Below, piece by piece: positions 1,867 to 45,627 of a DNA stretch of 64,000 nucleotides. How positions within the stretch are numbered: position 1 is the stretch's first letter; the number at the start of each line of letters is the position of its first letter. Both the position numbers and the translations under genes were made by a program. The DNA is taken from assembly GCA_000091205.1 (NCBI GenBank), contig AP006502.2; one strand, 5' to 3'. The stretch is from Cyanidioschyzon merolae. Lineage: Eukaryota. The notes under the pieces were generated by a model. That model was not told where the DNA came from, did not search any database, and was given only the letters and a program-made list of their open reading frames with translations.

Positions 1867-2291
1867 GGGCGACTTTTGTTCGTTCCTCTTCGAGCATCAA
1901 CTTCTGCTCGACGCACTGCTTCCAATATCCAGACACCACAAACGCCCAAGGATCCAATGCTTGCTTTCTTCTTGGTCATACACTGCATCACCAAGAACGC
2001 GATAAACTTGGAACAGAAAGTGACATAGCAATCATCAGCAGCTGCTGTAGCTCCATAGAACGCTCGAACGCTGGTGAGGGCGCTCGAGCCGTGCGCTCAG
2101 CGCCAGCGGCAGTCGAGGCACCCGCAACATCGTCAACCGGCAACGGCAATCACCGCGTGCTCCCCTGAGACAGTTTTCACGGTTATACTGTATATATTGT
2201 CGTTTTGTTTCGACTTGGCCGTACTGCCTTTTCGACTGTTCTTCTGCACAGACGCGGTCGTTTGGGGCAAGATCCGTTCGTGCTCGGCTCT

Positions 2292-4595
2292 ATGGTTGTA
2301 AGGTGTCAGCGGTACTGCGGTCGAGGCCACGCTCAAGCGTCATGTTTCGTGAGTGTCCTTGCCCGCCTTGAGCAGACACAGTTGCGACACTTTTGCCGGG
2401 CTGGTACCTTTTCTACACGTCGAGTTTGTCCCGCAGTGCATCAGAAACCGTTAATCGTTTGCTCTGGTGACGAGCGCAGGGACCCGCCGCACAGTTTGCC
2501 CAAGACTGACGGTGAGAGGAACAAGAGAACCAGTCGTTTCACCGAGGAGGAGCTACGGCGACTGTCGCAACTGGTCCAGGCAGAGCTCTTTCGCGATGAA
2601 CAGAAGCCTTTGGATGTTCTAGCGGATGCAGACTTGGCGGGGAATGCGTCTTCTGGGGCTCACGCGACGCCGGTTCGGGTGAACGTTGACCTGGGGCTCT
2701 ACAGGGCTCGCCGCGCGGCACAACGTGGCCGCTTTGACCTTGCTCGTGCTTTGTATTTGCGTTGTTTGGAGTGGGACGTAAGCGAAGGCCGCGCTTGGCT
2801 CGGACTCGCCCGCCTTGCAGAACGTGCCAATAACTTCGCTCTTGCACGTAGGCTCTTCCAATACGGGGTGCGGTTCGCAGCGACAACGGTGACGGCGACA
2901 ACTCCGGGAACTGGTACCAGCCAGGACGCAACTGTATCGGAAAGGGCGACGTCGTCGACTGAGGAGGAATCGCGCCCTGCTTCTAGGGAGACTGCGAACG
3001 CGCGCAGGCCAAGGCGTGCACGCGTAGCACCGACGTTGAACGGATCACCATCCGTCAATATTCATCTCCTACAGGCCTGGGCGGTTATGGAGGAGTCCGC
3101 GGGCAACGTGGATCGGGCGAGAAAGCTCCTTCGTTCGGCGCTTCGGGCGGCACCACATCACGTCGCATCGCTGGTGGCTTTCGCCATGCTCGAACATCGC
3201 CAAGGAAACGATGAAGCCGCGTTGCTCTATGTCTCAGAAGCGAACAAAGTCGATCCTGAGAACTACTATGCTTTGCATGTACGGGGCCTCATTGAATGGC
3301 GGGCTTTCCGTCGGTACGAAGTTGCCCGTCGTGCTTTTGAAAAGAGCCTCGCACTTAATCCCTCCAATTCCGTGACGTACCATGCCTATGCTTGTATGGA
3401 GGCCTGGGCCCTGGGCAACGTCCAGCGCGCACGCGAGCTCTTTGATACTGCTTTGAAGAAGGGGAATCCACGGAATCGTTTCATCCTGCAGAGCTGGGCG
3501 CTTTTAGAGGCCGAGAAAGCTGATGATCTGCAGGCAGCTCGAGCGCTGTTCGCAAAGGGCACGCAGGCGCACCCACGAGATGCAGCGATCTGGCAATCCT
3601 GGGCACTCGTCGAAGCCCGGAGAGCTAAAGACGTGGAGAAAGCTCGAAAACTGTTCGCTGCTGCGCTGCACGCAGACCCACAGCATTTGGCAGCGTGGCA
3701 GGCGTGGGCCATGCTAGAAGCCGACGCATCCCGCGGTGGCAGCGGCATCGAGGAGGCCCGGAAGCTCTTCCAGAGAGCAGTGTGGGCAGCACCGGATTCG
3801 CCCGATATCGGTCGTGTCTGGCATGCCTGGGCAACAGCGGAGTTCACCTACGCTCGAGATCTGGAAAGGGCCCGGCGCTGTTGCCAACTGGGCCTCGAAG
3901 CCGAGGAACGAATCCGCGATCCGGCCAATACCAGTGACGTTGACGGAAGAGCAGTATGGAGCCCGTTTGGTGTTTCGCCAGGACAATCCGGCTCGGGGAC
4001 CAGCGTCCAGAATTTTATGGTCGAGACTGAGGGTATCCAGGATTTACCGCTGATTGCAGCTGGTTCCTCGTATTTGCGAAGACAGCGATTGCGGGGACGT
4101 GGCGGTTCTTTGCGGAAGCGCTCGCAAACACGCTGCCGCCACGGTGCATTGCCGATGCTATACACACTCCTGGGTCAGATTGAGGCGCTGTGCGAGAACA
4201 TTGCAGCCGCGCGTAGATGCTTTGAAAAAGCTGTGGAAATGGATCCTGGCAATTCCGATATCTGGGAAGCGTACGAGAACATGGAGAGGGATCACGGCGG
4301 CGGTGCCGTTGCAGCGCAAGCTGTAAGTCAACGCGCCCTCATCGCCACGAGTGCTCTGGAGAGGAGTCGAGCGCGGATCGCAGCCGCCAGGGCCACAGAC
4401 CTGAGCCAAGATGACAACACGAACAGGATGAATGAGCGCTCCACAGACCCCGCTCTTTCCGTGAACGAGCTGCCGATCCAGCTCACTGAACCGCAACCGG
4501 GAGACTTTGCCTCAACTGGCACCTGGATTGAGTATCGGGAGCTGTTACGACTGAGTCACTCGGAGGTGACACGACGGCTCCGCCAAGGCCCGTAG
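2292..4595 (+). CDS. HAT/TPR-repeat protein, HCF107/MBB1-like (putative plastid RNA processing or stability factor)
   Basis: About nine consecutive HAT repeats with the pattern LLQAWAVMEESAGNVDRARKLL / FILQSWALLEAEKADDLQAARALF / AIWQSWALVEARRAKDVEKARKLF / AAWQAWAMLEADA... The pattern L/I-LQ-S/A-WA-LE...GN...AR.LF matches HCF107-type HAT proteins. The stop at 4595 is unambiguous. The start is uncertain: the ORF track opens at a TTG at 2205 (MFRLGRTAF..), and the first in-frame ATG is 2292. Confidence 0.6.
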   Translation: MVVRCQRYCGRGHAQASCFVSVLARLEQTQLRHFCRAGTFSTRRVCPAVHQKPLIVCSGDERRDPPHSLPKTDGERNKRTSRFTEEELRRLSQLVQAELFRDEQKPLDVLADADLAGNASSGAHATPVRVNVDLGLYRARRAAQRGRFDLARALYLRCLEWDVSEGRAWLGLARLAERANNFALARRLFQYGVRFAATTVTATTPGTGTSQDATVSERATSSTEEESRPASRETANARRPRRARVAPTLNGSPSVNIHLLQAWAVMEESAGNVDRARKLLRSALRAAPHHVASLVAFAMLEHRQGNDEAALLYVSEANKVDPENYYALHVRGLIEWRAFRRYEVARRAFEKSLALNPSNSVTYHAYACMEAWALGNVQRARELFDTALKKGNPRNRFILQSWALLEAEKADDLQAARALFAKGTQAHPRDAAIWQSWALVEARRAKDVEKARKLFAAALHADPQHLAAWQAWAMLEADASRGGSGIEEARKLFQRAVWAAPDSPDIGRVWHAWATAEFTYARDLERARRCCQLGLEAEERIRDPANTSDVDGRAVWSPFGVSPGQSGSGTSVQNFMVETEGIQDLPLIAAGSSYLRRQRLRGRGGSLRKRSQTRCRHGALPMLYTLLGQIEALCENIAAARRCFEKAVEMDPGNSDIWEAYENMERDHGGGAVAAQAVSQRALIATSALERSRARIAAARATDLSQDDNTNRMNERSTDPALSVNELPIQLTEPQPGDFASTGTWIEYRELLRLSHSEVTRRLRQGP

Positions 4596-7237
4596 AGCGA
4601 CCAGATGCGACTGTATTAGGTGGCTGTTTACAGAGCGGGCCTCTGCGAGGTTTCGGTCAGGCAGGGTGATCCGTCGTGCACGGAGGCGTTGTGACAAACC
4701 TCAGTGCTTTCGAAGCATGGACTGCGCCACATGATGGTCGCGCTTTTCGAACAGCGCTTGGCGAGCTTGACGAAGCTCGTGCCCCCAGCGTCGCTTTGCT
4801 GCGTTTGACAATCAGGGCAATGCCTGGTACAATGGGGCATCGTTTGCATGTGGTTCGCATGAAAGTCGACGTTGCGACGGGGACGGCGAGACCCTCGCTG
4901 CGACGCCGGTGTCAGATAAACGTGGAACTCTGAACTGCTGGCCGTGTTCCTGCTTTGACATTTTTTGCGACTGTTTTCCATACGTTCAGTCTCAAGTTGC
5001 AAAGGGCAGCAATAAGGGCTTGAGGATCCAATCGTTGTCCCAGGATTCGCAGTTGTCCTGTCGGTGTGGCGCCTTCAAATATCTCCCGTTGGAATTCGTT
5101 ACTCTACGGTTATCAAGATAATTTGCGACGCCCCCGAAGAAGCGTTTCACAACACAACCAACATCACGCTCCAATGCTTACGTACAAGCCGCCGCTCTGC
5201 TCTTATCCTTATGAGAAACGTGATCAATTCATGCATGCTTCTTGCTCCCGATCTCATCATTTCAGGGTAACACTCGGGCGCAGCAATTCGCCCTGCCGGA
5301 TTGACAAGCGAAACCAGACGACCTTAAATGAGGACCTTTTCACCAGCTCATTCCGAGAGCTGGCTGAACGTGTCATGTCAACGAATCGATTTACTCCGAA
5401 AGACAAATCTGCCTGTCCATGTGTGTATCGACGAAATGGCATTCGACAAACTCATGTTACGTTGTAGGGAATATACTCGAAGAGACTCTCGTCTCCTCTG
5501 CTTGCATGAAAAAAAGACTTGGACTCGGACATGAGTCCTCGCAGCGAGCGCCTCACTTCTAGAGTGCGTCACAGCTTTGTACGCAGTAATCGTAGACGAA
5601 TCGAATTTTCACTGGTTGTTCTCCAGCCTGCGTTTCCCTTGCGGTACTTGTGCCATCATGGACAATGATGCCATCCACATTTCGACCATCGAATGGAGCA
5701 GCGTGCACCTATGTGTGTGTGTGTGTTCGTGCATCGTACAGCGCGCTCGCCGAAACGCTCGCCCAGAAGAAACCCCTGATCGCAGGGTACAGGAAACCGC
5801 TTGGAAACGGAGGAGAGCATTGAGTGGTTCCTTCTGTATCGGCCAAGGGCATCTGTCGAGCGACGAAGCGAGCGTTCACGCTACCCAAAGCGGTTCTCCG
5901 AAAACGGAGTGTCATGGACGTTTGAGAATACCTCACCACAGCCAAGTGGCACCACTGTGAACTGCGCACTGAGCCTGTATACAAGGAGGATAGGAGTAGC
6001 GAGCGGAGCGCAGGTGCAGCTTCCGCCCTGGCGTGAAATACGAACAAGACGGCCAAAAGTGCCACGGCTGGACTTTATCGCCGCGATGAACTCCCGTCGA
6101 CGGCTGACAATGAACCCGGAGAGAATTGTACGGCCGACGGTTGCAACGCAGGATACAACAGGTCACAAAAGGAAGCATGCACATAAAAATACCGCCATGG
6201 CTGCTGTGCGCAGCAACGAAAAAAGACCCAAACTTTCCACGCGAGCTCGCTGCCCGGTCCCATTTTGTTCCTCGTACGGGTGTTGCGCGGCGCGTTCCGC
6301 ATGCAAGGCCGCCGTTCCTTCGAAGCAGATCGAGCGAAATCTGGTAGGCGGACAGCACATGTCGCGGGCCTCTGACGTGTCCCCGCTCTGATCCTGATGA
6401 GCGTTTCGCTCGATCGCCTCAGATGTTCCAATCGAATGTCGTGGCAGCCTACAGCGCGGCGATCGTGGCGCGCACGGCGAAACGTTTCGTCCACAAATAG
6501 AACCGTAGTTTCACCTGAATTATGTTCCACCACCAGACGCGTGTCCTCAAACGCTTTTCGCGGTTTATAACAGATACGTCTGAAGTGCGTTCATTTGATA
6601 CAATATAAAATCTGAAGGATCGTTATGGACATGGAAGACGGGGATTCTGGATGGTGGTTGTCATCGCCGAGTTCGACCAGGAAATCAAAAAAATCCTCTT
6701 CTCGCCGACTATCGAGTGACCAGGGGTATGTGATGAAGAAATTGGAGAGAAAGGCGAGAAAAGGTGCCTGCCCGACGTGACGATGACGGGACTTCCGTGA
6801 TTCAGAGGGCGCGAGTTCGACGACTGCGTCTAAAGGTGCGTTCTGGCAGTGACAGGGAACGCACAGAGTTCGTGCACCCAGACTTTAACGCAGCGATGAA
6901 TACCAGGTGATATGAGGTATTGCACACGCGACCCGACGAGCAGAGACGATCCACCAGCTTTGTCGGGCAGCCTTTCGGAGTCGAAGTGTGCAAGGAGAAG
7001 CTGAACCCGATACAGCACGGGGGCCCGTCGAGACAACCAGGAAGGCGTCTGCAGTTGCGAGTCATATCGACCCTCTGTGGTCGTGAAACGTTTTTCGTTT
7101 TATCGGACAGTGAGAACCGGACACGTGTCCGCGTGCGATCGCAAGCGACTGGCGTCGCATCGTTTTGCGATACGCTTGCCAGAATCTTTTCGAATTCTTG
7201 TTCTAAACGCGTGCATTATTGTGCGTTACAGGGATAC

Positions 7238-14770: not shown

Positions 14771-16131
14771 TGCATCCGCTTTGCCGAGCGATCGTGTAAC
14801 AAATGGACGCCGTCGCACTCCCTCTCCACCAGCAAGAAAGCATGCTATCCTCGGGCACCAATGCCTGAGATCCAGGTTATCTGCGAAGATAATCATGTGG
14901 GTCTTGTTTAGGTCAAGCATTGACCACCGGCGCGTGAGATTTAGACCATGCTAACGGACAATCTTGAGAGAATTGCGTAGGTTCAATGATGCACAGCGTT
15001 TTGTGCGATTAAGCGGAAGCAGGGTTTCCTCACTTTCAGCAAGATACGCGCAGCACCTGGAGACGCTGTCTGGTGGGCAACCTCTATCCGTCGTGGCGAT
15101 CGCTCCATTTGTGTTCGTCTGCGTGGATTCTGCGCGATGATCCGAACAACATCGGGGACTCCAACGCCAGCGCAAGTGGGTGCCTCTGTATGGAAACTTG
15201 CTCGGGTGCGGGTCCAAGAACTCGACAACGACTTTCATCTGAAGCGTGCTTTAAAGTCTGCCAGCGCTTGGCGAACGCAGTACTGACGGGCGCCTTCATT
15301 TCAGGAAGAAGAAACACACTCGCCCCTGCGAATAGGTCGTCGCCTTTGATACCACGCAATCCGAATAAAGCGGATTGTTTCCTTCAGAATTTGGGCAGAG
15401 CCTAGGAGGAGGGCAACCTCGCAGAATGCAGCCTGTTGCAGGAAACACTGGAAGATTCCTACATTGGTGCAGGCATTTCGATGCCACGTAGGTCCTAGAT
15501 GGAGCACGTTTCGGGCGGGATGCCCGCAATACAAGCGCGCGAACCTTCGGCACAGTCCTGAGGAGCTCCGGAAATACCCGGAGAGGCAGCGAGTGACTTG
15601 AGCTCCGAAAAATCGTGTTCAACTCGACGAGCGCAACACCGACTTCGAATCCGTCGCGGAATGAAACTGGAATCCTGGCGAACGCGCTGCAATGCCCCTT
15701 GTTCAGAGCAGATCGTCTGTAACGTACTCGATCGGACGAATGATCATTCACGAAGTAGATTCTGGTCTGGGGTTCCTAAACCCGAACGTTGGTCACTTTC
15801 CTACATAACGGTTTTTAGCATCTGCGCATCCTGGAGATCCCTGGTTCGATGCAACGATCCCTTACCCCCAGACATAATCGCATCTCCTTCGAGAAGCCGA
15901 ACCTAACGGAAGCAGAGACCCGACTTGCGCCTCTCGTGGATACGTCTCGACGCTCCGTCGTATGGGCTGACCACACCCAACATCCCCGCTACCGATTCGA
16001 GCGAGAGAGAATGTTTTACGGGCATGCCATTGTCCGGCGCATAGCACCTAGCGCTCATGGATGGTATACGATCGACCTCTAGATCCAAGCATCGATTCCG
16101 CGACTGAAAAGCCGGTGCTCCCTGGAGCGCC

Positions 16132-17328
16132 TCAGCTCATCGCCTGCGTCACCGGAGCATCATAGTTGCTGATCGCTCGCTTCCGATCGATGCGCTTGAG
16201 CAGACCAGCCAGGGTACGCCCGGGCGCGAGTTCAAGGAAATTTGTCCGATCACCGTGGTCCATAATGGCGGTCTGGATGCAGGCCTGCCAACGAACTGGC
16301 GCAGTTAGCTGCTCCACCAGGCGCTGTTTAATGGCATCTTTCTGATTTTCGTGAGGACGTCCCGTCACGTTGCACATCACCGGGTACTGAAGCGGCAGAT
16401 TCACGTCGATCGTTTGCAGCGCATCCGCCAAACGATCCGCTGCTGGCTGCATGAGCTGGGAATGGAACGCTCCAGCAACGCTGAGTTCCGTCGCCTTGAG
16501 GTGCAATGTGGCCGTCGCATATTCCATGGCCCTCCGGCAGGCGTCTTTCGATCCACTGAGTACGATCTGGCCTGGGGCATTAAAGTTTGCAGGGACAAGA
16601 ACCTCGTTACGCTTCCGGCACGCTTCACAGAGGTCCATAGCTTGTTCCTCCGAGATGCCCAGAATAGCGACCATGGTTCCCTCTGAGTCCTCTGCTGCTT
16701 TCTGCATAGCATCACCGCGGATCGTGACGAGTTCCAGGCCGGCTTCGAACTCGAACGCTCCTGCGAGCGTCAGCGCAGTGTACTCGCCGAGGCTCAGGCC
16801 CGCCGTCGCTGCCACGTAACTCGGTTCGCGACGCGTGCCAGGTGCGAGCTCGAACTGCTGTAGCCCGTACCAGCAGGCCAGTGATGTCACAAAAATCGCT
16901 GGTTGCGCGACATCCGTTCGATCGAGGACGTGCTTCGGGCCGTTGAACATTATATCCATCAAACTTTGACCATTCGGTAGACGAGAGCGTCCCAGGTAGC
17001 GATCTGCGCGTTGAATTATCTCCCGTGCTGCGCTGGATGCCTCGTACCAGGCGCGTCCTTGGCCTACCGTCTGCGCACCCTGACCCGGACAAAGCACTAC
17101 GACAGGTTCGCCTTCGCGCATGTGTAGCGTGCTGGCGTGGCTCCAACGCGTGCCGTGTCGCTCGCTGAGGCGGCGCACAGGCGCCACCACGAACCAAGGC
17201 GCCGCGGCCGCTGCTTTTCGCCACACGGTGCGCAGTCGTTTGTGTTGAGCGCACTGCAGTACAGGCCGCACGCCAGTGCCAACGCCGGCGCCCTTACTGA
17301 CGGACACGAAACCCACTGGGGTTTCCAT
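16132..17328 (-). CDS. FABD: Malonyl-CoA:ACP transacylase (FabD), organelle-targeted (type II FAS)
   Basis: Contains VVVLCPGQGAQTVGQG, then AIFVTSLACWY, then the active-site GLSLGEYTALTLAGAFEFEAGLELVTIRGDAMQ, then PANFNAPGQIVLSGSK. An ~80-aa Arg/Ala-rich leader follows the first ATG (complement of 17326-17328, METPVGFVS..). The ORF track's M at 17355 is a GTG. Confidence 0.9.
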   Translation of the reverse strand: METPVGFVSVSKGAGVGTGVRPVLQCAQHKRLRTVWRKAAAAAPWFVVAPVRRLSERHGTRWSHASTLHMREGEPVVVLCPGQGAQTVGQGRAWYEASSAAREIIQRADRYLGRSRLPNGQSLMDIMFNGPKHVLDRTDVAQPAIFVTSLACWYGLQQFELAPGTRREPSYVAATAGLSLGEYTALTLAGAFEFEAGLELVTIRGDAMQKAAEDSEGTMVAILGISEEQAMDLCEACRKRNEVLVPANFNAPGQIVLSGSKDACRRAMEYATATLHLKATELSVAGAFHSQLMQPAADRLADALQTIDVNLPLQYPVMCNVTGRPHENQKDAIKQRLVEQLTAPVRWQACIQTAIMDHGDRTNFLELAPGRTLAGLLKRIDRKRAISNYDAPVTQAMS

Positions 17329-18066
17329 ACACCAAACCGTTGCAGTGAAGTACACGAGTGCCAGCGCAGCGTCAGCGCACGATGCCTAGCTTCGACGTAC
17401 GCGTCGCCAGCACCGCTGCCAATACGACTCCGCGTCAGAGGGCCGTGTACGGGCGTGATGCGCACAGACGCCCATTCCTTTGTCCATTTTATTCCTATAT
17501 GTACTAGTACAGAGATTTTGCAGCCGCCGCGCGCAACGCTCCGGATGACATGCCGTATCAGCGGCGGTTTCGCTCGCCGATCTGGAAAGCACCCGCAACG
17601 ATTCCGCTGTTGCAGGACCAGGCGACGCAGCGCCCAGCCCTGGCACTCACGGACGCGTCTGCTACCAGTGCGTGCTGGGTACGCGCAGCGTTCCGTGCGG
17701 TTTGGCAGGTGTGCGTTCACCTTGGTGTCTGCAGGATACCTGGTCCTGAAGTTCGAGTCGATCTTGAGCTCATCAATTCTTAAAGCTTAATTCCTCCTTC
17801 TGAGCTCTATGGTTACCGCGGCAGGGTCGAGCGTCCAGAGAAGCAGCGTGCATTCGATGACCCGGCTCTATGTATCAGATTAAACGGGCACCCTGAAGTG
17901 CTCACTATCTTCCTGATTTTCGATTCCTTTTTCGAATTTTTTCCCAGTGCACAGCCTTGCAGTTCGAAATGGAGCAAGAAGGACTTTTGTATTCATGTGT
18001 TGTTTTGGGATTTTTGGTCGATGTTTTTTCGAAGGGGCACCTCTGTCGTTTCGCCCATGAACCTTG

Positions 18067-18700
18067 ATACGTCACCGAAATCAAGATGAATCGCGATGCC
18101 TTTTAACAAGCGTTTGTGAAATCACCGGTGTCACCATCCAGTTCATACGTGCACCGATTACGCTACTCCTCTGCTTATGTTGCGCATACGTAATCACGAA
18201 TGCTTCACGTTCCCAATGCTTCCGTGTCAGGGTAGCTCATGGACGCAGCAAGGCGCGCACCTGGACGGACGACGACCAATACATGGCGTCGTCCAGTGAC
18301 GACATCATCACAAGCCCATGCCGAAAGTCCTCAGAACTTGTCATGTCAAGCAGTCGATGCCGTTCGAAGGACGAATCCGTCTCTCGCCGTGGCAGTCCAT
18401 AAAACGTCATTCGACAGCCGCGGCATAATAGCTCTGTCTGGATACGCACCCAGCTGCTCCGGTCGCTTCTATTTCCTCGGTAAATGCCTTCGACTCGAGT
18501 CATTGCAGCGATCGCATCCAGCGCAGAGCGCGTCACCGCTTTGCACACAGGGAGCGTAGACGGATCGACGTTGCTCGACTTGATCGCGAGCGTGGACTTT
18601 TTTTCTCGTACTTGTGTCACCATGGAGGACATTGCGTTGCGTAAATCGTCTATCGGCTAGAACAGCATGCGCGTGTATTTTCAGCGGTCAAAATACTCGT
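18067..18700. repeat. Dispersed repeat, copy A (~634 bp). About 97% identical to the copy at 36247..36878, in the same orientation.
   Basis: The ORF-track peptides from 18064..18402(+) and 18237..18632(-) are nearly identical to those from 36212..36580(+) and 36415..36810(-), with 1–2 aa differences. Nucleotide similarity starts at 'acgtcaccgaaatcaagatgaatcgcgatgcc' and ends near 'cagcgg.caaaatactc'. The flanks are unrelated. Confidence 0.85.
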
Positions 18701-19381
18701 CGAAGGAATCGCATAGATGAAGCCACGGATCGTAGGATACGGTACCGAGCACGGAAACCAATGAAGCATCGCGTGGAGCCTGCTGTACCCGTCCAGGGTG
18801 TGCATAGAGCAGTGAAGCAAACGTTCACGCGGCGCATTGCCGCGCTCAGACGAGGATGAGGAGGAGCTCCTGTGAACGTTTGAGGGCACCTCATCACAGC
18901 CAAGTGTCATCGTTGCGAACGGCACACGGAGCTTTTCGACAATGAAGATGCAAAACGGCGAGCGACGCATAGATTACATTCCGCGCCTGTGCATTCCATG
19001 TGTCGACAAGCGCCGCAATCAGCGAAACGGGGACTAGAACGCTACGATCAACATCTCCCGACTGTTGAGAACAGAACTGGAAGCAAAGCAGAGACCTGCA
19101 TACTTAAAAGCGGAGATGAGATCAAAAGGAAGCAGTCGCAGAAAAACCTCGCAGAGGCTGGTATGAACTACAGTCGGCATAGATCCAAACTTCATTGCGT
19201 ACGCCCGTGTTGGAAGACCTGTTCCATGTTATTCTCCCAGGGGTGCGGCAGCGAGTACGTCATGCAGTCCCCATGACAAAGGCTGACGACCATGAAGAGC
19301 GCGCCACAAAGTCTCCCTCGACGGTAATCCAGTGTCGCATATGCCAGTGGTTCACGCATCGGACGCCCGCGGCAGTGTCGC

Positions 19382-20113
19382 TTACACTCCGGATGCTTCA
19401 GCTACACTCGCTGCATGCGCGTCATGCGCAGCATCCACAGTTCCGTCATCGTCTCCGGTGTTCGATGTCTCCGCTGCGGGCGCTGCCTGAACACCATTCT
19501 CCATGCCTTCGTTTGATAATGTCTCATTCGCTTGTAAGACCGATGATAAGTGCCCTGTTTGCGTGGAAGGCAGCGTTGCCGACTCTGGCTCGGTACCATT
19601 GACGGCTCCCGCGCTATCGCTCGACGGGAGCGGCGCAGAGGCGAGCTTCGCACGGTTGCCCGCCGGTTGCACCCGCTCGAACCCGGGAACTTCCTTCTCC
19701 CAAAACGGCACCGTCCGCGGCACGAACTGCGGTTTCGAGTTTCTATAGCGGTAAACGGAAAAGGCTGCTAAACAAGCCAAAACACCCCCAGCTAGACCCA
19801 GGCCTTGAATAACTTGTCGGTTACTCGTATCCGAGTGGTCATCGAGGTAGTTGCAAAAGTCCGACTCGCCGGGGCCCACCTCGTGTCCTTCGGGTAGGGG
19901 GCTAGTTGGCGGTTCGTCTGCCGTCTGAATGTTGGACTCTGCTCGGATCTGGCGCGCATAACGTACCAGTTCTTCAAAAGTCGCTTCCCTATGGTGAGAC
20001 GCGCCTTCGCTGGCAGCCGCACTGAACGTCCTGCGCCAGAGGCGACTGCAGGGTCGCGACAACGTCCACAACGTACTGGCCCGGAGAGCAGACTGCCTCA
20101 AGACGGTTCCCAT
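19382..20113 (-). CDS. Hypothetical single-pass membrane protein with a presequence-like N-terminus
   Basis: ATG at 20113 (MGTVLRQSALRASTLWTLSRPCSRLWRRTFSAAAS is Arg/Ser-rich and amphipathic). There is one hydrophobic segment, GLGLAGGVLACLAAFSVYRY (glycine-zipper-like). The C-terminal half is acidic and low-complexity. No family assignment. Confidence 0.4.
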   Translation of the reverse strand: MGTVLRQSALRASTLWTLSRPCSRLWRRTFSAAASEGASHHREATFEELVRYARQIRAESNIQTADEPPTSPLPEGHEVGPGESDFCNYLDDHSDTSNRQVIQGLGLAGGVLACLAAFSVYRYRNSKPQFVPRTVPFWEKEVPGFERVQPAGNRAKLASAPLPSSDSAGAVNGTEPESATLPSTQTGHLSSVLQANETLSNEGMENGVQAAPAAETSNTGDDDGTVDAAHDAHAASVAEASGV

Positions 20114-25186: not shown

Positions 25187-27628
25187 CATCCGGGGCAGCG
25201 CGAGACACCGAATAGGTGGCGGGAGCATCCGAACGAGCCCCGTGGTATCTCAACCTGGGGCAAGCGCTGGCGAGCCCATTCAGCTGGGTCCTTGATCGAC
25301 GACAGCATCGCCTGCGGTGACGTGTTATACGCATCCAGAACTGCAGCGTGGATCTGGGCGAGACCCATTACGTACTGACATCCCGGAGCGAATGCACGAT
25401 GTAGCCACGCAGTGCTCGGGGATGCTTCTCTTCCACTGTTGGGGTTCGTTCGACAGAGGCGTGCGCTCCCAGCTTGCCCTGGACGAAAAGGCGGCGCGGT
25501 TCCACGTAGACTCTTTGAGGAAACCTGTTGCTTTGTTCTGGCGACGTAGGCAAAGCTCCATGCTCTGTAGCGATATTCTAGCGGACATGTGGTATTTCGA
25601 GAACGCGCATGTCGCTGAATAGCATCCAGGTCGTCATCATTGCATGCAGCTCATAAAGATATTCCATCGCATCGAGTTTTGCCCGTGGACTGGCCGACGA
25701 GGTGCCCGCAGCGTCGGTACCAGCCCCCAGCGTACTCCATCGGGCGTTGTGTGGCACTGGATGCACGTTTCCGTTGGGTATACCCATTTCGTAATCGAAT
25801 GGAATGGACCTACGAAGTTAACTCAGGTGTACATGCGCAAAATTTGGATTGCTTCGCACTGTGATCAACAACAGCCTTTGCGGGCGTTTCCTGCCACTGC
25901 TTCCTTCTCCTCTCGTATTCTGACTCGAAATACGCCGGTCGCTCTGTTTCTTCCAGCACTGTTGGATGCAGTCAACGGATGTTTATGATATCTTTAGGGC
26001 GCCCCGATGTTGCTGCGTCTGCCAGCTGTTGGGCACGAATCCCATGCACAGGCACGAGCAGCGGTCTACGCTTCCCTTGTCATTTTCTTGTTCTTGAAAT
26101 GAAGCTTCGGTGCGCGGTTTGCCGCGATGACACTTGACTGCGGTCAGGTATTGCCGTACTTACTCCAGAACGCCTCCTTCAAAGGCCTACCCTCCGGCGC
26201 TCGAACGCTCCCGTTGATGGGCTCCTCCTATGCCGGCACCCGGTGCCGTGCCCTGCGTCCGGGGGCTTGTTCTTGGTAACCGCCTTGGCGAACGTTCTTT
26301 TCGCTCCATTCGATGACGCAACCTTCTTGCATGCTTTTCATTTTCTAAAAAAGCTTTCGAAAACTATGCCGATGAGCGTTATGAGGGTCGAGGTGCCCTG
26401 CCCACACATAGGCGGAGTGTGCACGTTTTCCACCAGCTTACGATAAAGTAGCCACGGCTTCCGAGACGCTCTGGGGTTTCACTCGCACATCGGACCATGC
26501 CCCGATCCGGTTTCTTCCGCTGAGACGAGTATGATACGCGTGCAAGTGGAGCTTTTGACTATAGACGCCATTCGGAGTGTTCGAAACTCGTGCCTCCAGA
26601 GCATTGTCGTTTACCAATGGCGGAGATGGATCGGACGCCACTGCGGATTTCGCAGAAGCGCAGGTGCCAACGTTCGCTCTCCCCGCGTCCGGGCGTGCGC
26701 CAAGCGCACCAGGGCGCAACTCCGAGAAACCACACTTCTCTACTGCTTGACATACCGCCAAGTGTCTCCTCTTGTGCGCTATGTGACTGTCGTGAGGCAT
26801 CCAGCATTTTCGCACTCGATGATGATCGACAATCCCTGGTCATCAATCATAATGGACGACAATGCATCTGCTCGCTATAGAGCAAATATCCCTTCCCTCC
26901 CTTTTTGATTGTCCTTCACACCTTCCTTCGCCTTCCGTCGTTATTCGTTCCTCCAACTGCTTCTGAGCGCCTTCGAGGCTCTGGGCGAAACGTGCCTAGT
27001 TCGGATTCTGGGATTCGGGGAAGTTCGGCTGCGTCTGGGTATCGCCCTGTTCGCGATGGACTCCTAGTTGATCGCTTCGCGCTCTCGCAGGCAGTACGTC
27101 TGTCTGTACGACTTGCAGGCTCCGAAAATGAGTGTGTACTCCGACCCCGTATCAGATGAAGCATTCGTCGAGCCGACGCCCTCAGTATTACGGGAAAGCC
27201 CTTCCATTTCCGTGATGCAGCGGCACCGGCGGCATAGGCGCTACAGCGGACGGTCAAAGCAGGCACTCTGCTCTCGATAGAATTTACGAAACAACCAGGA
27301 CATCAAGCAACAGGTGATGGAACTTTCAGGTAAGCTGCAGCATAATCATGAACGCTTTTTCGATTATGAATACCCATCTATCCCACAAACTGGGATATCC
27401 ATAGTCCATCGAGCTCTTTCATCATTGGTAAAAAAGATCACCGCTGCCGTCGCTCAGCCGACGCCTCCGGGCACCGCGGCACGAAACGGGACGTCTCAAT
27501 CAACGTTTTCGTTGTGCTGAGACAACGTATCCGTCGGATAAACGTGTTTGACACGAGTGCGTTTCAGCTGTCGTTCGCATAAACCATTCGAAACAAGGCA
27601 CGAGAATACTCAACTCTGATTACCCGTG

Positions 27629-29244: not shown

Positions 29245-30729
<1,485 letters not shown>

Positions 30730-32329
30730 TCAGTTAGCAAGAGCCAGGGACACCGCAGGTTTCGCCAAAATACGTTGGGACGTTTCTGGGGCGCGGCAGT
30801 TGTCGCTGGGGAACTGCTTCGAAAGCGAATCGCAGCATTGAGGCGCAGCACGCTGCCACTCCTCGTGCCTTCGCTGCTGGAACAGAGCGATTTCTCGGGA
30901 GCGGCTTATAAAGTGCCCCGTAGGATGCAGAAGACTGCTGCATCTCGGAACACGCTTTACTATCGAATGATAAGGAACACTTGTCGTTCATTAACTGTGG
31001 AGGGAAATCGTTTCTGGTCCACGCACCTGTCTATATACGGCGCTGCAGCGTGCCTGCATTGCTGAGTTGTACCGTGCAAGTGCCTTGCTGCAGGCGCGAA
31101 GAGAACGCCGCCTCCTCTGACCAGTGATTTTCGTCATAGAAAGCCTTTGGGGTTTCACGGCAATGTCCGCACGAAGCACGAGACGATTCGATCGAGTCTT
31201 CGCCGGGCACCACGTCGCTGGACGCTCCGAAAGCATGAGACCTGTTCGAACGCTGACCAAAGCGTTCAAGTCTCGACGCAGAGCGTGCTTGCGCGCATGG
31301 TTGCAGGAGGAATCACGCCAGAGCAGGGTGCTCACCTTCGATATCCTCGCGGTCTGACAACCGTGTAGCGTATCAAACACAATATCTGGTGCGTCCGTCT
31401 CTAGCTCATGCTCTGCCTCTCTGCCCGTTTCATCATCCTCCTGTGTTCTTCATTCGCGGATGTTGTCCTGCACGCAACGATGGGCATCGTACAGAATCGA
31501 TGCCTTTGCTCGTTCGACGCTGCCCTCTAATGAGCAGTAGTGCAGGATTTTTGCGATACACCAATTCTAGCGCCAGAGGCTACCAAGATACGATACGACT
31601 CGTCGGACATTTTCCGCTACAACGCATTGAGCGATTTGGAGGACGCACGCTTTTGGCGTCCGCACAACAGACACCGTTGCGTATCCTAGCGGTGTCGTAT
31701 AGACTCTGGTTAAAGCTCCTCTGCATGAGCCATTTGGACGCTAAGGTACTCCCCGAATAAAGCGTACAGACCATGCTGCTTGGCCCCGTGCGGAGCCCAG
31801 TATGTCGAGCCTAGCCCTGTCGCCGTCGTTTCTCTAGTTGGAATGCGTGCCGGCGTCGAGCAGGCCTGTCTTGTCACTATGGAGATCGCTGGAAAATATG
31901 AGACGATTCATGTTGGTTCCATTCTGGTTATCGGTTCCGTCCTGTTGATGCTGAGGTACGGCGACGACGATGATGCCCTGGCACCCGGGATCCGTGCCCT
32001 CGACGGATTCTCTCCCTCTCTCGCTCTCTAACCTGCACGGCCGAAAATGGCTCTCGTTGCCCGACTCTGGCCAAGATTTCATAAAATGCTTGCAGGTGAA
32101 TATACCGTTGCTCTCCATCGTAGTAGTGAACGTTGCTCCATTAAGTTGGTGTAGATGAGAGACCCTGAACGAGCTCTGCCAATGCTCTTCGCGAAGTTGC
32201 TCGAATTTTGCATAGCAGGTTACAGAGAGAAGCACCGTCTTCTCCTTCTCCTACACCTGGACATGTTGCATGTATGCTGTCATTCATCTCCATATCTCTT
32301 TCGCCCTGGCACGCAGATGTCGCTAGAGG

Positions 32330-32503
32330 CTGGTTGGGCTGACGCTTGCCATTCGTAGGAATGCCGCGAATTTTCCAAAAGCGCCGTTTCGTCACCTTCT
32401 TCGTCATCGTCAGAGACTGGTTGGACTGACGCTTGCCACTCGTAGGAATACCGCGAATTTTCTAAAAGCGCCGTTTCGTCCCCTTCTTCTTCGCGGGCAC
32501 GTC
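32330..32503. repeat. Tandem duplication of an 87-bp unit inside a 3.7-kb gene-free interval
   Basis: The unit 'ctggttgg(g/a)ctgacgcttgcca(t/c)tcgtaggaat(g/a)ccgcgaatttt(c/t)(c/t)aaaagcgccgtttcgtc' begins at 32330 and again at 32417. Copies are about 90% identical. The minus-strand ORF 32280..32672 translates it as two 29-aa repeats (DETALLENSR.SYEWQAS). Confidence 0.7.
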
Positions 32504-34390
32504 CACCGACCGAAACGCGCTGTTCGGCTCTACCCCAAGCGTGAGCGGCGACGCAACGGACCATTTCTGGGCTGGTAACCGAAGCGAAATATTTATCGAG
32601 CAGCTTCGAGGTCATGGATGCGAATGACTCGTTCGTTACGCTGTGAGCGAAAAAGAAAGCGTGTCGGACCATAAAGAAGACGCCTTCAACTGGACTCTGG
32701 TGTTGCCAGATGTATCCGCGGCACCTCCACTACCCAGACCCGCACTGTGGCATGTGAACACGTGCTTCACCGCCCGGTACTCGCACTGGACGGGTACAAC
32801 AGGCTCGCCTCGATATCGTCCAAAGCATCCGCACCCTGCGCCACACGCTGCGTTCACATGTATCTTCTGAGCGATCCGTTCGGCGCATACGCAAGCGCTC
32901 GCCGCTCCATTCGATACAATATTCGTAGAGTACGATATCACCCTTTCTGGAAAGATTATCGGAAGCAAACCCCAGCCTGGAGATCCATTCGGGAAATTGC
33001 GATCCGTCTACGCTCGCCTCATGCAACGCGACAACATACGCTCCACTGGAAGCGTCCGCTGCGATAACTCAGGTCCGTTTCCAAGACCTCTTCCATGCAA
33101 ACAAAAGAGCCGTTTAGCCTCCAGGAGCGTGTCTCGTGAGCATTATCATGCTACTGCTGTCGAATGCCGATTCATAGATTGCCTCAGAGAGAGAAGGATT
33201 CGTCTGTCTAACGTAATCGATTATTTTGCGTAAGAGCTTCAGTGAGCGTTCGGCATGAGCTTGTGAACAACTCGACAAGGGACGACGTCAAACTGTGTAT
33301 CGTCGTCAATCCAGCTGTGCGAATGAATGCGCCCAAGAGTTGCTTTGAAACAGAAACACCGAAAACGTGAAGCATGCGTGATTTGATCATGCACCATGCG
33401 AGGAACTTGGAAGAAACGTGGCTCACACGTACGAAATGTCTCAGGATATCGCTTATTATCGTACATATCCTTGTTCCATGGCGTCGCAAATCATCCTGAT
33501 TCCGGTGGCGTAAAGCATTCCAGCGGCAATGCGTCGCAGGAGCCACCCTCCGAGCACACCCGAAATCCACGCATGAGTCCGTACGCACGCACTGCTGAAC
33601 TCGGACTCTTCAGGATATATATTGGACAAGTTCGGAAAAACCTCCCGAAACCTACTACCAGACCGACTCGACCGGCGTTCTGCTTCCGTCTCGTATACGT
33701 TTAGAGAGGCCAGCCAGCGCACCCCCGTACCCGTGCCGCGCCCCAGCTGCTGTGTCGTGCGTGTTCGTGCATGACGCGATGCGGCACGCACACCGCGCAG
33801 CGAGGCGTACCGCGGCAGTTGCCGCTGCCTGCGAGCGCTGTGATTGATCGATCGATCGACGGATCGTTGATCGATCGCGACGCGAGCATCTGTTCAGCAG
33901 CAGCGCCTGTTGCTGCTCACTTCTGAACGGCGTCTGCACTCCGATTTCGCGCAGCAGCGCGCACGTTGGCCCAAAGCTGCGCAACGTTGCTCCTATTCTG
34001 AAGCGATTCTCACACAGAGGCTCCTGGCGTTTCCAGGTGTGTTCCTGTGGGAGCATTTGTGCGTGCGTGTGTGCGTGCGTGTGTTTGTGTCTAGACGTTG
34101 GACAGGTGCCTGAAGCCAGCGCACCGTTTGGACGAAGCGCTTCGAGGGACTGCGCGCGTGCGCGCTAGCGTTCACCTCGTTGGATAGCGCTTACAGAGGC
34201 GAGCGAGCTTGGCGTTCGAGCGCAGCGCTTCTTTCGTTTTTGCGGGGCGTGTGCGTTCCCTGCATACGACAGAACAAAGCGAGGGTTCGCTGGCAGCGCA
34301 GTGTGTGTGCGTGTGAGTCGGAACATCTGGTGTACTTCCAGCCGCAGGTATAGACGCTTTCGTCGGCAGTTGGGACTCTCGTGCATAAAC

Positions 34391-34960
34391 ATGAGCGAAC
34401 AACAGCAACAGCAGCAACCACAGCAGCCTCCGTTGCCGTGTGCGACGGGTTGTGGGTTTTACGGTCGCCCCGAGACTCAGAATATGTGCAGTAAGTGCTA
34501 CAGGGACCACAGCCAAAGTTCAGAGTTGAGCAGCAACCGCGCGAGCGGTACGTCCTCGGGATCCGCAGTCCCGACACCTGCCACGCGCGAGGCACCAGAT
34601 TCACCGCGAGATGTACAAGACAACATGTCGGTTTCCGGGGTTGCAGCGCTCACCAGTACACTCGAGTCCCAACCGAAACTCGAAACGGAAACCGGCCCCG
34701 CAGCCGTGTCCGCAGAGGGATGCAAGGCAGAGGTACAGGTAGAGTCACCAAAGCGAGAGCAGAAGGACCACGGCAACTGCTTCAAGTGCAATCGCCGAGT
34801 TGGACTGCTGGGTTTCAAATGCCGATGTGGTTTTACGTTTTGCTCGCTACACCGCTACGCTGAACAACACGACTGCGACTACGACTATCGTGCGCGGGCG
34901 CGTGAACAGCTCGCGAGTGCCAATCCGGTAGTTGCGGCGAGCAAACTGGAAAAAATCTGA
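34391..34960 (+). CDS. A20/AN1 zinc-finger (stress-associated protein family)
   Basis: ATG at 34391 (MSEQQQQQQPQQPP). The A20 finger is CATGCGFYGRPETQNMCSKCY. The C-terminal AN1 finger is CFKCNRRVGLLGFKCRCGFTFCSLHRYAEQHDCDYDY. The ORF track opens 90 nt upstream at a non-ATG. Confidence 0.85.
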   Translation: MSEQQQQQQPQQPPLPCATGCGFYGRPETQNMCSKCYRDHSQSSELSSNRASGTSSGSAVPTPATREAPDSPRDVQDNMSVSGVAALTSTLESQPKLETETGPAAVSAEGCKAEVQVESPKREQKDHGNCFKCNRRVGLLGFKCRCGFTFCSLHRYAEQHDCDYDYRARAREQLASANPVVAASKLEKI

Positions 34961-36246
34961 AGACGCTTGCGTTCCCGGAGGAAACTTTTTGAGGTGTTTG
35001 ATGGTAAACCGTTGTCCTGTTTCTCGACCTAGAGTTGGACGTTTCGTTGACGGTTGCATTCCGTGCTGGTCGGTCATGATCATAACGGTATACGCGTTTA
35101 TCAGCTCCGCTCGAAAGCTCTCTGATCCGTTTCCATCGCAAGACAGCATATGCTCGTGTCCTGATGCACTGACACGAAATTCTCGATGTAAGGAATCCAG
35201 TGTATCTGGAACCGTGCAGGTTTCAGTGTAGGCGCATCGTGCTCATAAGCGAATGCTGCGAGTTGTGTCGGGGTCATGTCGTGAAGCCTCATGACTTCAG
35301 CGAAGACGCTTCACCATATCCGGAAACCTCCTTGCTCTAGCGCGCACGATGTGCGGTTCTAGCGTCGCACAAGGAATTGAACTCCACGCGGCGGCAATGG
35401 AGAAAACTCGAAAGACCGGAACGCGCTCCAGCAACCGAGTTGCCGCTCTATACGCCCTGTACGCATCGCTTACCGCACAGCATCCAGGTGTACTTGTAAC
35501 GCCTGGCTCGCGTCTCTTCGCGTCAATGAAGGCCTTTATGAAATACCGGGAAGGGTGCATTGTCCGTTCGAATGCTAGGTCTCTGATAGAAGCCAGTAGA
35601 GTGCATCCAGATCGCGAGCGGCAGCAGCGCATTCGAAACCCCAGTCGTCTTCCAGTTCGTACGGACATGATGTTGCACCCGAAGCGGTCGTTGCAGCGTG
35701 CGTTATCAAGTTGTAATCGTTCAATTGCTTGACAACTGAAGAGTGGCAGTTTCCAGACACTTTACAAAGCTTGTATGACTGAAAATATCCAACGCTGAGG
35801 CCGATGAAAACCGCGACACGACAGGCCGTCGTTCCCGAGCGGATCGTGGTTTTTGCTCGCCTTGCTGGACTCCGCTGCAGCTGCGAAAGAAAATACTTCA
35901 AGCGTTTTCGGATTTGGGGTATTCGTGAATTTTGCAAGGGCTTGTAGTGCAAGGCGGTGGCGGCGGCGGCGGCGGTACGGTACGAAAGGAGGGACTGTGG
36001 AGGCTTCGCAGTGTGTGTTCCGGATGTTACGGCCCGAGCTGAACTTGCCACAGCGGTGTCGATCGAAAATGGAACAAAGAACTGTTCGCTCTGTTCAGGA
36101 GCTGAGATTTTGCTGAACATTTTTTAAACGCTTAACATCAATTTTGGCTTTCAAGTGCCTAGGTCTTACTGATGCATACGAGATTTTAGGATTCTTGGTT
36201 GTTTTCTCCGGGTGTCTGTTTCAACGCTTTGTCGCTGGAACGCTTT

Positions 36247-36878
36247 ACGTCACCGAAATCAAGATGAATCGCGATGCCTTTTAATAAGCGTTTGTGAAAT
36301 TACCGGTGTCACCATCCAGTTCATACGTGCACCGATTACGCTTCTCCTTTGCTTATGTTGCGCATACGTAATCACGAATGCTTCACGTTCCCAATGCTTC
36401 CGTGTCAGGGTAGCTCATGGACGCAGCAAGGCGCGCACCTGGACGGACGACGACCAATACATGGCGTCGTCCAGTGACGACATCATCACAAGCCCATGCC
36501 GAAAGTCCTCAGAACTTGTCATGTCAAGCAGTCGATGCCGTTCGAAGGACGAATCCGTCTCTCGCTGTGGCAGTCCATAAAACGTCATTCGACAGCCGCG
36601 GCATAATAGCTCTGTCTGGATGCGCACCCAGCTGCTCCGGTCGCTTCTATTTCCTCGGTAAATGCCTTCGACTCGAGTCATTGCAGCGATCGCATCCAGC
36701 GCAGAGCGCGTCACCGCTTTGCACACAGGGAGCGTAGACGGATCGACGTTGCTCGACTTGATCGCGAGCGTGGACTTTTTTTCTCGTACTTGTGTCACCA
36801 TGGAGGACATTGCGTTGCGTAAATCGTCTGTCGACTAGAACAGCATGCGCGTGTGTTTTCAGCGGACAAAATACTCCT
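36247..36878. repeat. Dispersed repeat, copy B (partner of 18067..18700)
   Basis: See copy A. Same orientation. It lies in the gene-free interval between the AN1 gene and RPN8. Confidence 0.85.
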
Positions 36879-37947
36879 CGAGGGGCTGATCCAGAACAAG
36901 TCCGCCATCTTACGGGACGCCATCGAGCGCGGAAACGGCACAGGGGATCCAGCGAAACCCAAAATACCGTTTCGGAGCATGCATCGAGCGATGTCGCAAG
37001 CCCTCACGCGCCAGCGGGTAGCCTTTGGATACCTGGATATGATGGACACATGGGAGCACCAGACCATCGTCAAGTGTAGCCGTTGGCAAGGTCACCGAGG
37101 CGCCACATTTCGAACAATTTGGAAATCGCCATCGCAGCATAGATCCCAGTTACCACCTGTGCATGGAATGCGTCGACAAGAGCCACAAGCTGCGAAATCT
37201 GGCCGTTGATAATGCCATCAACATCCATCTTCTGTTAACAAGGGAGCTTGAGCGACCAGAGAGACCGGCGCATTGAACGCCGCAGATAAGCGAGTAGAAG
37301 TAGCCAGTCACTGCAAATGGCCGCACAGGCTGGTGTTGATAACAGCTGGAAGCGTCCCGAGCTTTAGCGCGGTTACCCCACTCCGAGGAACCGTTTGATT
37401 TTGTTCTGGAACGAGGGTAACCAGCGCGTCACACGGAAGGCACACTCGTTTTCGACATACCGTCATCGAAAACATGGTTCGTTTCGCCTGGTTCAGCGAA
37501 ATCGCATCTACCTTTGTGACGTCGATGGGGCAGAGCAGGCATGGTGCGCGAGGCTCGGCGGCCAGCGCTTCCAGCGCCGCTCCTCAGACATCGTGGTCAT
37601 TAGAATGGCAAAGTATTGAGATTGGATTGTTTCTGCGTAGACCGCTTCTCAGTAGAGTAGTTCCACGCTCCTTGGATCTACGGAAAGCGCATCGCCTTGG
37701 GGCCGTTTCCGCTCTGGAACGCCACCGAGTCGCATGTTCCGAATGGTGTCGCTGGACTGCGCATCCTGTATTATGCAAAGCGACACCCTCTGTGATATGC
37801 TAACGCATCAACATCACAATGTGCTATCTGCCTGGCTCTATCGCGCGCATCCATACGGCTGCCACGCATCTATCACTAGAAGAGAAAGAATCCGCTCCGA
37901 AAATCAGCCGTGGTGGACATACCTCATCGCAGGCAGACGCAACGTAG

Positions 37948-44772: not shown

Positions 44773-45627
44773 CGCTCAGGCTACCAGCACACGGGTAGTG
44801 AGCGAGCCCTTGCTCTATCGGAAACCAAGCCAACAATAACCCGAAAGAATCAAGTTTCCTTGCACACAGCGCTTCTTACGCAAAGTTTCCAGGCCAGCTC
44901 TCGGTTGATCCCGTCACCGACGCTGTACAACAGAAACCCTGTGAAACGACCGATGGGTGAGGCACGCACCTGCACTGCACGGCTGCGAACGCGAACACTC
45001 GTTACGCAACAGAGTGGCGCGCCCCCTTCCAGGCTTGTGTGTCCGCGTTTACACAACCGGGACGGAAGCCGACCACCAGCGGTATCCACGCAAGTCGCAC
45101 CCCGTACGATACAGACACAAGTCGCAGACTGCTCAAGAGGCGACCCAGTAGCGTGCACTCGTTTCCGCACCAGCCCAAGCGTGCACAAGCTACGCTGCGT
45201 GGTACGCTCACCTACGCCACACACAAATAAACACACCTGTACACCAGAAACGATAGCCAACTGAGGTCAGCCTTCTTCGGAAGGAAGCAAGCAAGGACTA
45301 TGCACCCTACCCGAACAGGAGCTGCGCCAACAGCGCAACGAAAAAGGCAGCTGCGCCCAGCAACGACGGCAGTCGAAAGTGCTCAACTCCGAATAGAGCT
45401 AGCCGGGCTATGGCAGTGCGTCTCTAGCGCGCGAATGATTTGGCGCGGAATTGCAACGCCTTGGCGCCGCCGCCGCCGCCGGCGCCTCCGAAGTCCTGCG
45501 GGTGCAGCCAAACAGCAACGCGCTCGAATCGCGACGGCGGCGGTGCGGAGATCCGCCAAGCATTCCAGGGGTTCCTATGGATTGTACAGATGGAGCGACA
45601 AGTGGCAATCCATGGGAACAGGGGCGT

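Follow-up and report, generated by a model that had tools for sequence, protein, structure and literature searches.

The window analysed here, a stretch of 64,000 nucleotides from chromosome 20 of Cyanidioschyzon merolae 10D, carries two near-identical patches of DNA on the plus strand, copy A at 18068–18706 and its partner, copy B, at 36246–36884. The spacing between them is 18,178 bp, and the block enclosed holds CMT421C (19382–20113), GrpE, NOP9, BI-1, RuvBL2 (29245–30681), A20/AN1 and other genes, the positions being those obtained by exact look-up of the window proteins. The original prediction had described a direct repeat of about 630 bp, present twice at a distance of 18.2 kb with ordinary genes between the copies, and this description was borne out. 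Pairwise alignment with 200-bp flanks, a repeat finder and direct comparison gave 12 mismatches over 639 bp, that is 98.1% identity (about 97% had been predicted), with no indels and in direct orientation. The mismatches are spread unevenly: 4 of them fall within 18068–18171, 2 within the core at 18172–18651 and 6 within 18652–18704, the edges of this putative gene-conversion tract being more diverged than its centre. Consequently, the left edge of the patch (18068) is sharp, as had been predicted for both boundaries, whereas the right one is a gradient in which mismatch density climbs gradually.

Open reading frames of 106–131 aa are present on both strands of the patch copies. One of them, a 131-aa antisense ORF at 18237–18632 on the minus strand (36415–36810 in the partner), is intact in A, in B and in related strains. 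A search of 5.8e9 proteins with this ORF retrieved only its own 99% cluster, Pfam searches with the individual patch ORFs gave no match, and no codon-position substitution bias was detected in it. In elements C and D, two diverged relatives of the patch-bearing sequences described below, the ORF is interrupted by frameshifts. Since it has neither an outside homologue nor a Pfam match, is broken in C and D and runs antisense to the ancestral coding strand, we judge it to be a chance ORF, while the plus-strand ORFs of 106–122 aa are pieces of a decayed transposase frame. The earlier statement that ORFs of ~110–130 aa lack a recognisable domain is therefore valid for the single ORFs, which have no Pfam match, but not for the family to which they belong, the consensus of which matches IS630 and Fanzor/TnpB profiles. 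The patch ORFs should stay unannotated as genes.

The flanks of the two patches, which had been regarded as unrelated, turned out to be homologous. BLASTN with wider regions aligned A and B over ~1.26 kb (17980–19235 versus 36161–37407), both alignments lying inside homologous elements of ~1.38 kb, and the right flanks taken alone were 60% identical over 358 bp (E 1.7e-23). The patch is an internal segment of this 1.38-kb fossil and occupies its positions ~200–840. In windows of 50 alignment columns, A–B identity was ~53% in the left flank, 98% in the patch and ~57% in the right flank, whereas the A–C, A–D, B–C and B–D identities stayed at ~60–65% throughout, in the patch and in the flanks alike. 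The divergence of A from B outside the patch equals that of any two family members. In the flanks A resembles D at least as closely as it does B; within the patch A and B group together at 98%. The binomial probability of 627 matches in 639 positions is 1e-132 if a background identity of 57% is assumed. In four-way and twelve-way alignments the patch was collinear with the family, with no extra or missing segment, which marks it as a replacement and not as an insertion. Such a step of identity from ~55% to 98% and back to ~55% within old paralogues argues for ectopic gene conversion, not for transposition of the ~636-bp unit. Only two near-identical copies with extended flanking homology, a combination that had been set out in advance as the sign of a local segmental duplication instead of a mobile element, was thus encountered in modified form, the homology being ancient and not that of a segmental duplication.

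The suggestion that the ~636-bp unit is mobile in its own right, as a young non-autonomous element or a solo LTR that inserted recently at two places, is in keeping with the sharp boundary at 18068 and with the 98% identity of the copies. Moreover, C. merolae is known to carry a non-autonomous element of almost equal length, the 635-bp TE-N2_CMe, which is present in ~70 copies and represents the 5′ end of the larger element CMe-1A (Bao and Jurka 2013, PMC3627910). However, at both places the unit takes the place of the corresponding, homologous stretch of an older 1.38-kb element, with which it is collinear, and, as the same internal segment is replaced in A and in B, two independent insertions there are not credible. 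The unit starts with TACG and ends inside continuing homology; it has neither TG..CA nor inverted termini, and target duplications are lacking as well. The check for LTR-type or inverted ends and target duplications proposed in the original prediction thus gave nothing for the ~636-bp unit, the terminal inverted repeats (TIRs) belonging to the 1.38-kb element. Nor does the patch resemble CMe-1A, the first 635 bp of which share 95% identity with TE-N2_CMe, and the agreement in length between two sequences of the same genome is a coincidence. Taking into account also that no third copy emerged from the metagenome scan described below, we consider recent mobility of the unit extremely unlikely. 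Of the earlier alternatives, recent transposition or gene conversion, what stands is a recent homogenising event, with conversion already listed, and not the transposition of the ~636-bp unit; likewise, a non-autonomous transposon is involved, as had been proposed, but it is the larger element and not the unit itself.

It could also be supposed that the patch has a function, as a duplicated small gene (the 131-aa ORF or a plus-strand ORF), a regulatory module or a non-coding RNA, and that strong purifying selection keeps it identical. The intact 131-aa ORF in both copies and in the related strains, the lesser divergence of the centre compared with the edges, and the reported transcription of C. 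merolae interspersed repeats (Nozaki 2007, PMC1955436) would agree with this supposition. Against it stand the properties of the ORF given above, namely its lack of an outside homologue or Pfam match, its frameshifts in C and D and its lack of a codon-position signal, as well as the lack of any match in the window to Rfam at gathering thresholds or in a tRNA scan. Furthermore, selection cannot keep all sites, the silent ones included, at 99–100% identity while the flanks are at 55%, and the patch is ~63% identical to C and D, being no better conserved relative to them than the flanks are. Preservation by function is hence very unlikely in our opinion, and the solo-LTR, promoter-module and ncRNA readings of the original prediction found no support.

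The two patch-bearing sequences and several relatives make up a family of transposon fossils within the window. Element A is a full-length fossil of ~1.38 kb at 17867–19251 (plus strand), with TIR remnants at 17867–17898 and 19221–19245, and element B, also full-length and on the plus strand, extends over 36033–37419, with TIR remnants at 36051–36082 and 37393–37417. BLASTN of the unit against the window detected elements C and D at 62–69% identity. Element D (4900–6286, plus strand; TIR remnants at 4904–4935 and 6258–6282) is a full-length diverged member, ~57–60% identical to A and B, and element C (32697–33640, minus strand; found by BLASTN and by profile) is a diverged member whose orientation is opposite to that of A and B and whose 3′ end is truncated or rearranged. 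Element E, found at 25779–26644 on the minus strand, is the 3′ part of a further relative: profile positions 851–1418 match 25779–26312, a right TIR remnant is located at 25781–25805, and an extra upstream Fanzor1 remnant, which corresponds to residues 206–294 of the Fanzor1-like protein P0041 introduced below, was found at 26369–26644 by tblastn. As E keeps these upstream residues, its ancestor was a longer version of the element that contained a larger part of the Fanzor gene. A profile derived solely from copies at other sites of the genome matched A (17870–19251, E 2e-247) and B (36033–37419, E 2e-225), and also D (4900–6286), C (33640–32697) and E (26312–25779). A sixth family copy, at positions 2913–4292 of the metagenome locus L019, lies ~170–1550 bp to the left of window position 1, which makes six copies in ~66 kb.

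For copies outside the window, JGI metagenome contigs were scanned with a pattern that is conserved in A–D and lies inside the patch, which yielded 40 loci. Eight of these were dropped as chance pattern matches; about 25 of the 40 carry family members at places outside the window, which amount to at least a dozen further loci. At an identity of at least 93%, the patch occurred among the 40 loci in the A and B contexts only, with no third copy. This bears on the possibility that A and B were each overwritten by a third, younger donor residing elsewhere, such as a still-active IS630-type element. Eight transposase-related elements with similarity to bacterial-type transposases have been reported in C. 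merolae (Nozaki 2007, PMC1955436), and a donor of this kind could sit in a part of the genome outside the sequence examined. Yet the scan employed a pattern inside the patch and returned high identity only in the A and B contexts, and two events with nearly equal end points would be required, for which reasons a third donor seems quite unlikely to us. Metagenome contigs from closely related strains (99.0–99.7% identical) speak to the authenticity of the repeat. Apart from the general risk attached to repeats, nothing suggests that a single patch was placed twice, or that copies collapsed, during assembly: the reference is a finished genome (Nozaki 2007, PMC1955436), twelve fixed differences tell the copies apart, and contigs from several independent metagenomes show each patch within its own flanks, those of A or those of B, with both loci present on single contigs 104 kb and 153 kb long. 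Since the patch is found in both genomic contexts in independent contigs, the duplication is not an artefact of the reference assembly, and the chance that it is one is next to negligible.

Distinct copies of the family are 50–60% identical to each other in a star-like manner, as seen from the pairwise matrix, with the exception of the A–B pair and of one pair in a metagenome locus (L041), and they are 65–77% identical to their own consensus. The copies of the latter pair (contig Ga0078972_1002686, 1917–3204 and 8254–9612) are in direct orientation 6.3 kb apart and 100% identical over ~1.29 kb, while their left 100 bp are unrelated; this looks like another local homogenisation event. With a second pair of homogenised neighbours at hand, local homogenisation seems to be recurrent. 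Further copies occur approximately every 10–15 kb in unrelated loci, the window having 5 in 64 kb. Some copies contain extra segments, one of ~2 kb that lies close to the second Asp motif and contains no long ORF (L005, 7835–9872; L011, 3420–5441) and one of ~330 bp (L016, 5973–6303, and its equivalents), which contains CMe-1A positions 84–256. These segments were considered as possible missing parental sequence and rejected as such, being nested insertions, the shorter of them a CMe-1A fragment.

In an alignment of 12 representatives with their flanks, homology starts and stops at reproducible points ~1.38–1.40 kb apart; the family consensus is 1401 nt long. The ends of the consensus form an inverted repeat of ~30 bp with 27 of 30 positions paired (GCTACACCCGTATCAGATGAAAATGGAACA), the remnants of which were located in A, B, D and E, the individual copies being degraded. 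Of 13 copies, 7 have TA after the right end, whereas before the left end TA occurs in only 1 of 11 copies and TG in 5 of the 11. No codon-position or period-3 substitution signal was detected in individual copies, which indicates that they decayed neutrally after insertion; this negative result had first been taken to mean that the element is not coding, a reading replaced by that of neutral decay after insertion. The majority consensus restores long reading frames on the plus strand. Its 5′ frames comprise a helix-turn-helix (HTH) segment (..FGVAPSTLCRWNSL..; Pfam HTH_Tnp_4, E 0.012), a DETAF motif and a DNxxFH motif (..CFIMDNIAFHKS..; Pfam DDE_3, E 0.0026), both Pfam values having been obtained with the unedited consensus ORFs. 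A consensus pseudo-protein, the frames of which were corrected by hand, matched the NCBIfam profile of IS630 family transposases with E 4.9e-7 over profile positions 20–240 of 299, at 29.5 bits against a cut-off of 100; with a first, poorer consensus the E value was 2e-5. None of the single copies matches this profile alone, and neither the consensus pseudo-protein nor a profile derived from 11 pseudo-proteins found a meaningful match among PDB sequences. The third acidic residue of the DDE/D triad has no counterpart in the family and was presumably deleted. The stretch EYSP, considered as the third DDE motif, was dropped because intact Fanzor homologues place it in the Fanzor-derived frame. 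Judging by these motifs and profile matches, the 5′ part of the family looks like the N-terminal two-thirds of an IS630/Tc1-mariner-type transposase, with the HTH and the first two catalytic-Asp motifs.

The 3′ frame of the consensus (..KKPVIVGYGTGRGNGGGHRGEPSVPVKGMYRAMKQAF..TTAKCHRCEG..LCMKCVDNSRKQRNRDFNAAINIL..) displays a zinc ribbon followed by the RuvC-III motif RDxNAAxNI, the consensus reading CHRC...CMKC...NRDFNAAINIL, and matches Pfam PF07282 (Cas12f1-like TNB, OrfB zinc ribbon) with E 9e-7, above the gathering score. In a search of 5.8e9 proteins its C-terminal 150 residues were 45–56% identical (E 1e-31 to 1e-35) to four intact Fanzor-like proteins, P0041–P0044, which in turn match the CMe-1 Fanzor1 protein with E 1e-7 to 1e-8. 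With P0041–P0044 as tblastn queries, direct matches were obtained in A (18645–19220, plus strand), in B (36811–37273) and in C, D and E, and the window copies are still readable in places (ITAKCHRCE; LCMECVDKSHKLRN..DNAINI). The junction between the transposase and Fanzor parts lies at consensus position ~800, which corresponds to ~18645–18660 in A, where the transposase-derived part reaches to ~18650 and is followed by the remnant of the Fanzor1 C-terminus. A stretch of 150–200 nt separates the Fanzor stop codon from the right TIR. The 1.4-kb family has nothing upstream of approximately residue 313 of P0041, that is, neither the RuvC-I DPG motif nor the N-terminal domains; stops and frameshifts are present in all copies, and only E retains a further Fanzor piece. 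With the upstream portion missing and the frames broken, the family is a Fanzor-derived remnant and not a Fanzor gene. Overall, it looks like an internally deleted, non-autonomous derivative of a mariner/IS630-type transposon that formerly carried Fanzor1, as far as can be deduced from the sequences.

A full-length parent with both the transposase and Fanzor1 was not found in the contig contexts of the Fanzor homologues or in the extra segments of the family copies. The closest intact Fanzor1-like protein, P0041 (551 aa), is encoded at 5569–7224 of a metagenome contig (L051; JGI 3300035702 Ga0399894_004485) that also encodes an RNA ligase, a 2H-SAK protein and a Peptidase_S74 protein, with no transposase. 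These neighbours give the contig a viral look, reminiscent of the Fanzor1 genes that large DNA viruses are reported to carry. Another homologue, P0040, is an intact 610-aa ORF found in 17 contigs (L045–L050; e.g., L045, 6001–7833) with a GC content of 49–52%, where it adjoins Rpb2; its source is another, Cyanidiales-like organism, and its context is that of host genes. P0040 consists of a low-complexity N-terminus of 365 aa and only the C-terminal 180 residues of Fanzor, and may be a domesticated or fused Fanzor remnant.

The so-called 'WSV' repeats are cited as making up 5% of the C. merolae genome. Early genome analysis attributed 0.7% of it to transposons, the eight elements with bacterial-type transposase similarity among them, and reported 253 copies of a 3.2-kb interspersed repeat with a truncated WSV486-like ORF (Nozaki 2007, PMC1955436). 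Bao and Jurka (2013, PMC3627910) later described CMe-1A in the same genome as a 3169-bp element with ~150 copies, which encodes Fanzor1 and has no TIRs, and they also noted a Fanzor1 in white spot syndrome virus. We infer that the 'WSV486-like' 3.2-kb repeat is CMe-1A, and the eight transposase-related elements may belong to the present family as its best-preserved copies. Like CMe-1A, this family is Fanzor1-related, old and dispersed in intergenic DNA of the same genome; unlike it, the family has TIRs and a transposase part, and its copies are older (65–77% identity to the consensus versus ~80% for CMe-1A). When the CMe-1A consensus and the CMe-1 protein from the supplement of PMC3627910 were used, blastn against the family consensus gave chance matches only, and similarity to the protein was confined to 23% identity over the C-terminal 150 residues (E 5e-4). 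The patch differs from TE-N2_CMe accordingly, in having no similarity to the element whose 5′ 635 bp TE-N2_CMe represents. Similar in plan are the mariner/IS630-type elements with Fanzor1 in other eukaryotes, with TIRs of 24–33 bp and TA duplications (PUl-1, PUl-2 and PGv-1; Bao and Jurka 2013, PMC3627910). As in these elements, what looks like an IS630/mariner-type transposase lies 5′ of Fanzor1 on the same strand, and the TIRs of ~30 bp are of similar length. In contrast to them, only a deletion derivative is present here, in which the putative transposase is cut after the second Asp motif and no more than the last 150 residues of the Fanzor are left. Every copy is a pseudogene, TA precedes the left end in a single copy of 11, and pairwise similarity to the PUl-1 proteins is weak (E 8e-4 and 0.018). 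The family of TIR-bounded elements with an IS630 remnant and a Fanzor1 tail appears to be undescribed for C. merolae, Bao and Jurka having only CMe-1A and Nozaki the eight transposase-related elements. Rudenko and Korotkov 2024 (PMC11050394) contains no usable definition of a family.

The window also contains other repeats and transposon debris. A CMe-1A fragment from the 5′ part of that element (TE-N2_CMe-like) is located at 27005–27409 on the minus strand, and two plus-strand fragments, at 6555–6651 and 6805–6985, represent one internally deleted copy just to the right of element D; the window fragments are 67–77% identical to the published consensus. Downstream of C, tblastn revealed a divergent Fanzor1 pseudogene remnant at 31446–32193 (minus strand), which covers CMe-1 residues 353–612 at 25–35% identity (E 8e-18), and the gene-free stretch of 3.7 kb at 30681–34391 holds several transposon fragments. 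Three short tandem arrays, whose periods are 90, 93 and 87 bp (3, 3 and 2 copies, respectively; 89–93% identical), were found at 1578–1863, 45606–45910 and 32320–32492, the last of them in transposon debris beside element C. CTG/CAG-type trinucleotide runs at 43028–43105, in a 720-aa ORF (42610–44772), and at 57453–59303, in a 3750-aa ORF (52710–63962), imply poly-Gln or poly-Ser-like low-complexity tracts.

Taken together, we consider it highly probable that A and B are ancient, decaying copies of a non-autonomous transposon of ~1.4 kb, that the ~636-bp patch is a tract of ectopic gene conversion between them, and that their family is an IS630/Fanzor1 chimera. Two old copies in direct orientation, 18 kb apart, would have been decaying neutrally when homologous-recombination (HR) repair copied an internal segment of one of them, either A or B, onto the other. 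The copying probably occurred more than once, which would have left the centre almost identical and the edges eroded. By one possible route, conversion would have begun early, between young copies, and continued ever since, as in concerted evolution, while the island open to conversion lost ground at its edges; by another, a single templated repair event would have made re-conversion easy afterwards. A mariner-type element bearing Fanzor1 that lost an internal segment would display the chimeric pattern of the family. Interlocus (ectopic) gene conversion and concerted evolution have been described for dispersed transposon copies and for small gene families in yeast and mammals. The present case resembles them in the abrupt, sub-kilobase block of near-identity within diverged paralogues on the same chromosome, in direct orientation, with no indels and with eroded edges, and differs in the extreme divergence of the A and B flanks (~45%) and in that donor and recipient are indistinguishable. 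Against this explanation stands that copies only ~55% identical are poor substrates for HR, also for a first exchange between A and B.

At the 12 diagnostic sites that distinguish the patches, two related metagenome strains are mosaic between A and B, and at one of these sites both copies have G in one strain and both have A in another. Such shuffling would point to continuing exchange between A and B and is suggestive only, since short-read metagenome assembly (bubble-popping) can create mosaics. A separate observation concerns a 5.9-kb metagenome contig (L001, identical to L034; JGI 3300025503 Ga0209012_1007640), in which the FabD side of A is joined via the patch to the Rpn8 side of B: its positions 2109–3831 correspond to window 15681–18703 joined to 36246–39708, with sites 1–8 of A-type and sites 9–12 of B-type. 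Loss of the 18-kb block would produce just such a junction, but an assembler mis-join is the more likely cause, because the block contains presumably essential genes (RuvBL2, GrpE, NOP9) and the organism is haploid. As the repeats are direct, crossing-over between them would delete or duplicate the block and would not invert it, so that of the two outcomes originally foreseen, deletion or inversion, only the former holds, with duplication as its counterpart.

The patch itself, being a textbook conversion tract, is of little consequence: the repeat is real and its cause ordinary. Of broader interest are identical direct repeats of 0.6–1.3 kb placed 6–18 kb apart, which could serve as substrates for deletion or duplication in C. 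merolae, a species routinely transformed by way of homologous recombination. The abundance of the family seems to be far above the published transposon counts for this 'minimal' genome and deserves a whole-genome count, as it touches on repeat masking, on analyses of intergenic regions and on the choice of neutral integration sites. We put forward, tentatively and with some doubt, that C. merolae may hold hundreds to about a thousand unannotated IS630–Fanzor1 fossils, amounting to ~5–10% of its genome, the neighbouring copies of which would be repeatedly homogenised by efficient HR. If so, homogenised neighbours would constitute long identical direct repeats able to delete or duplicate the blocks of genes between them.
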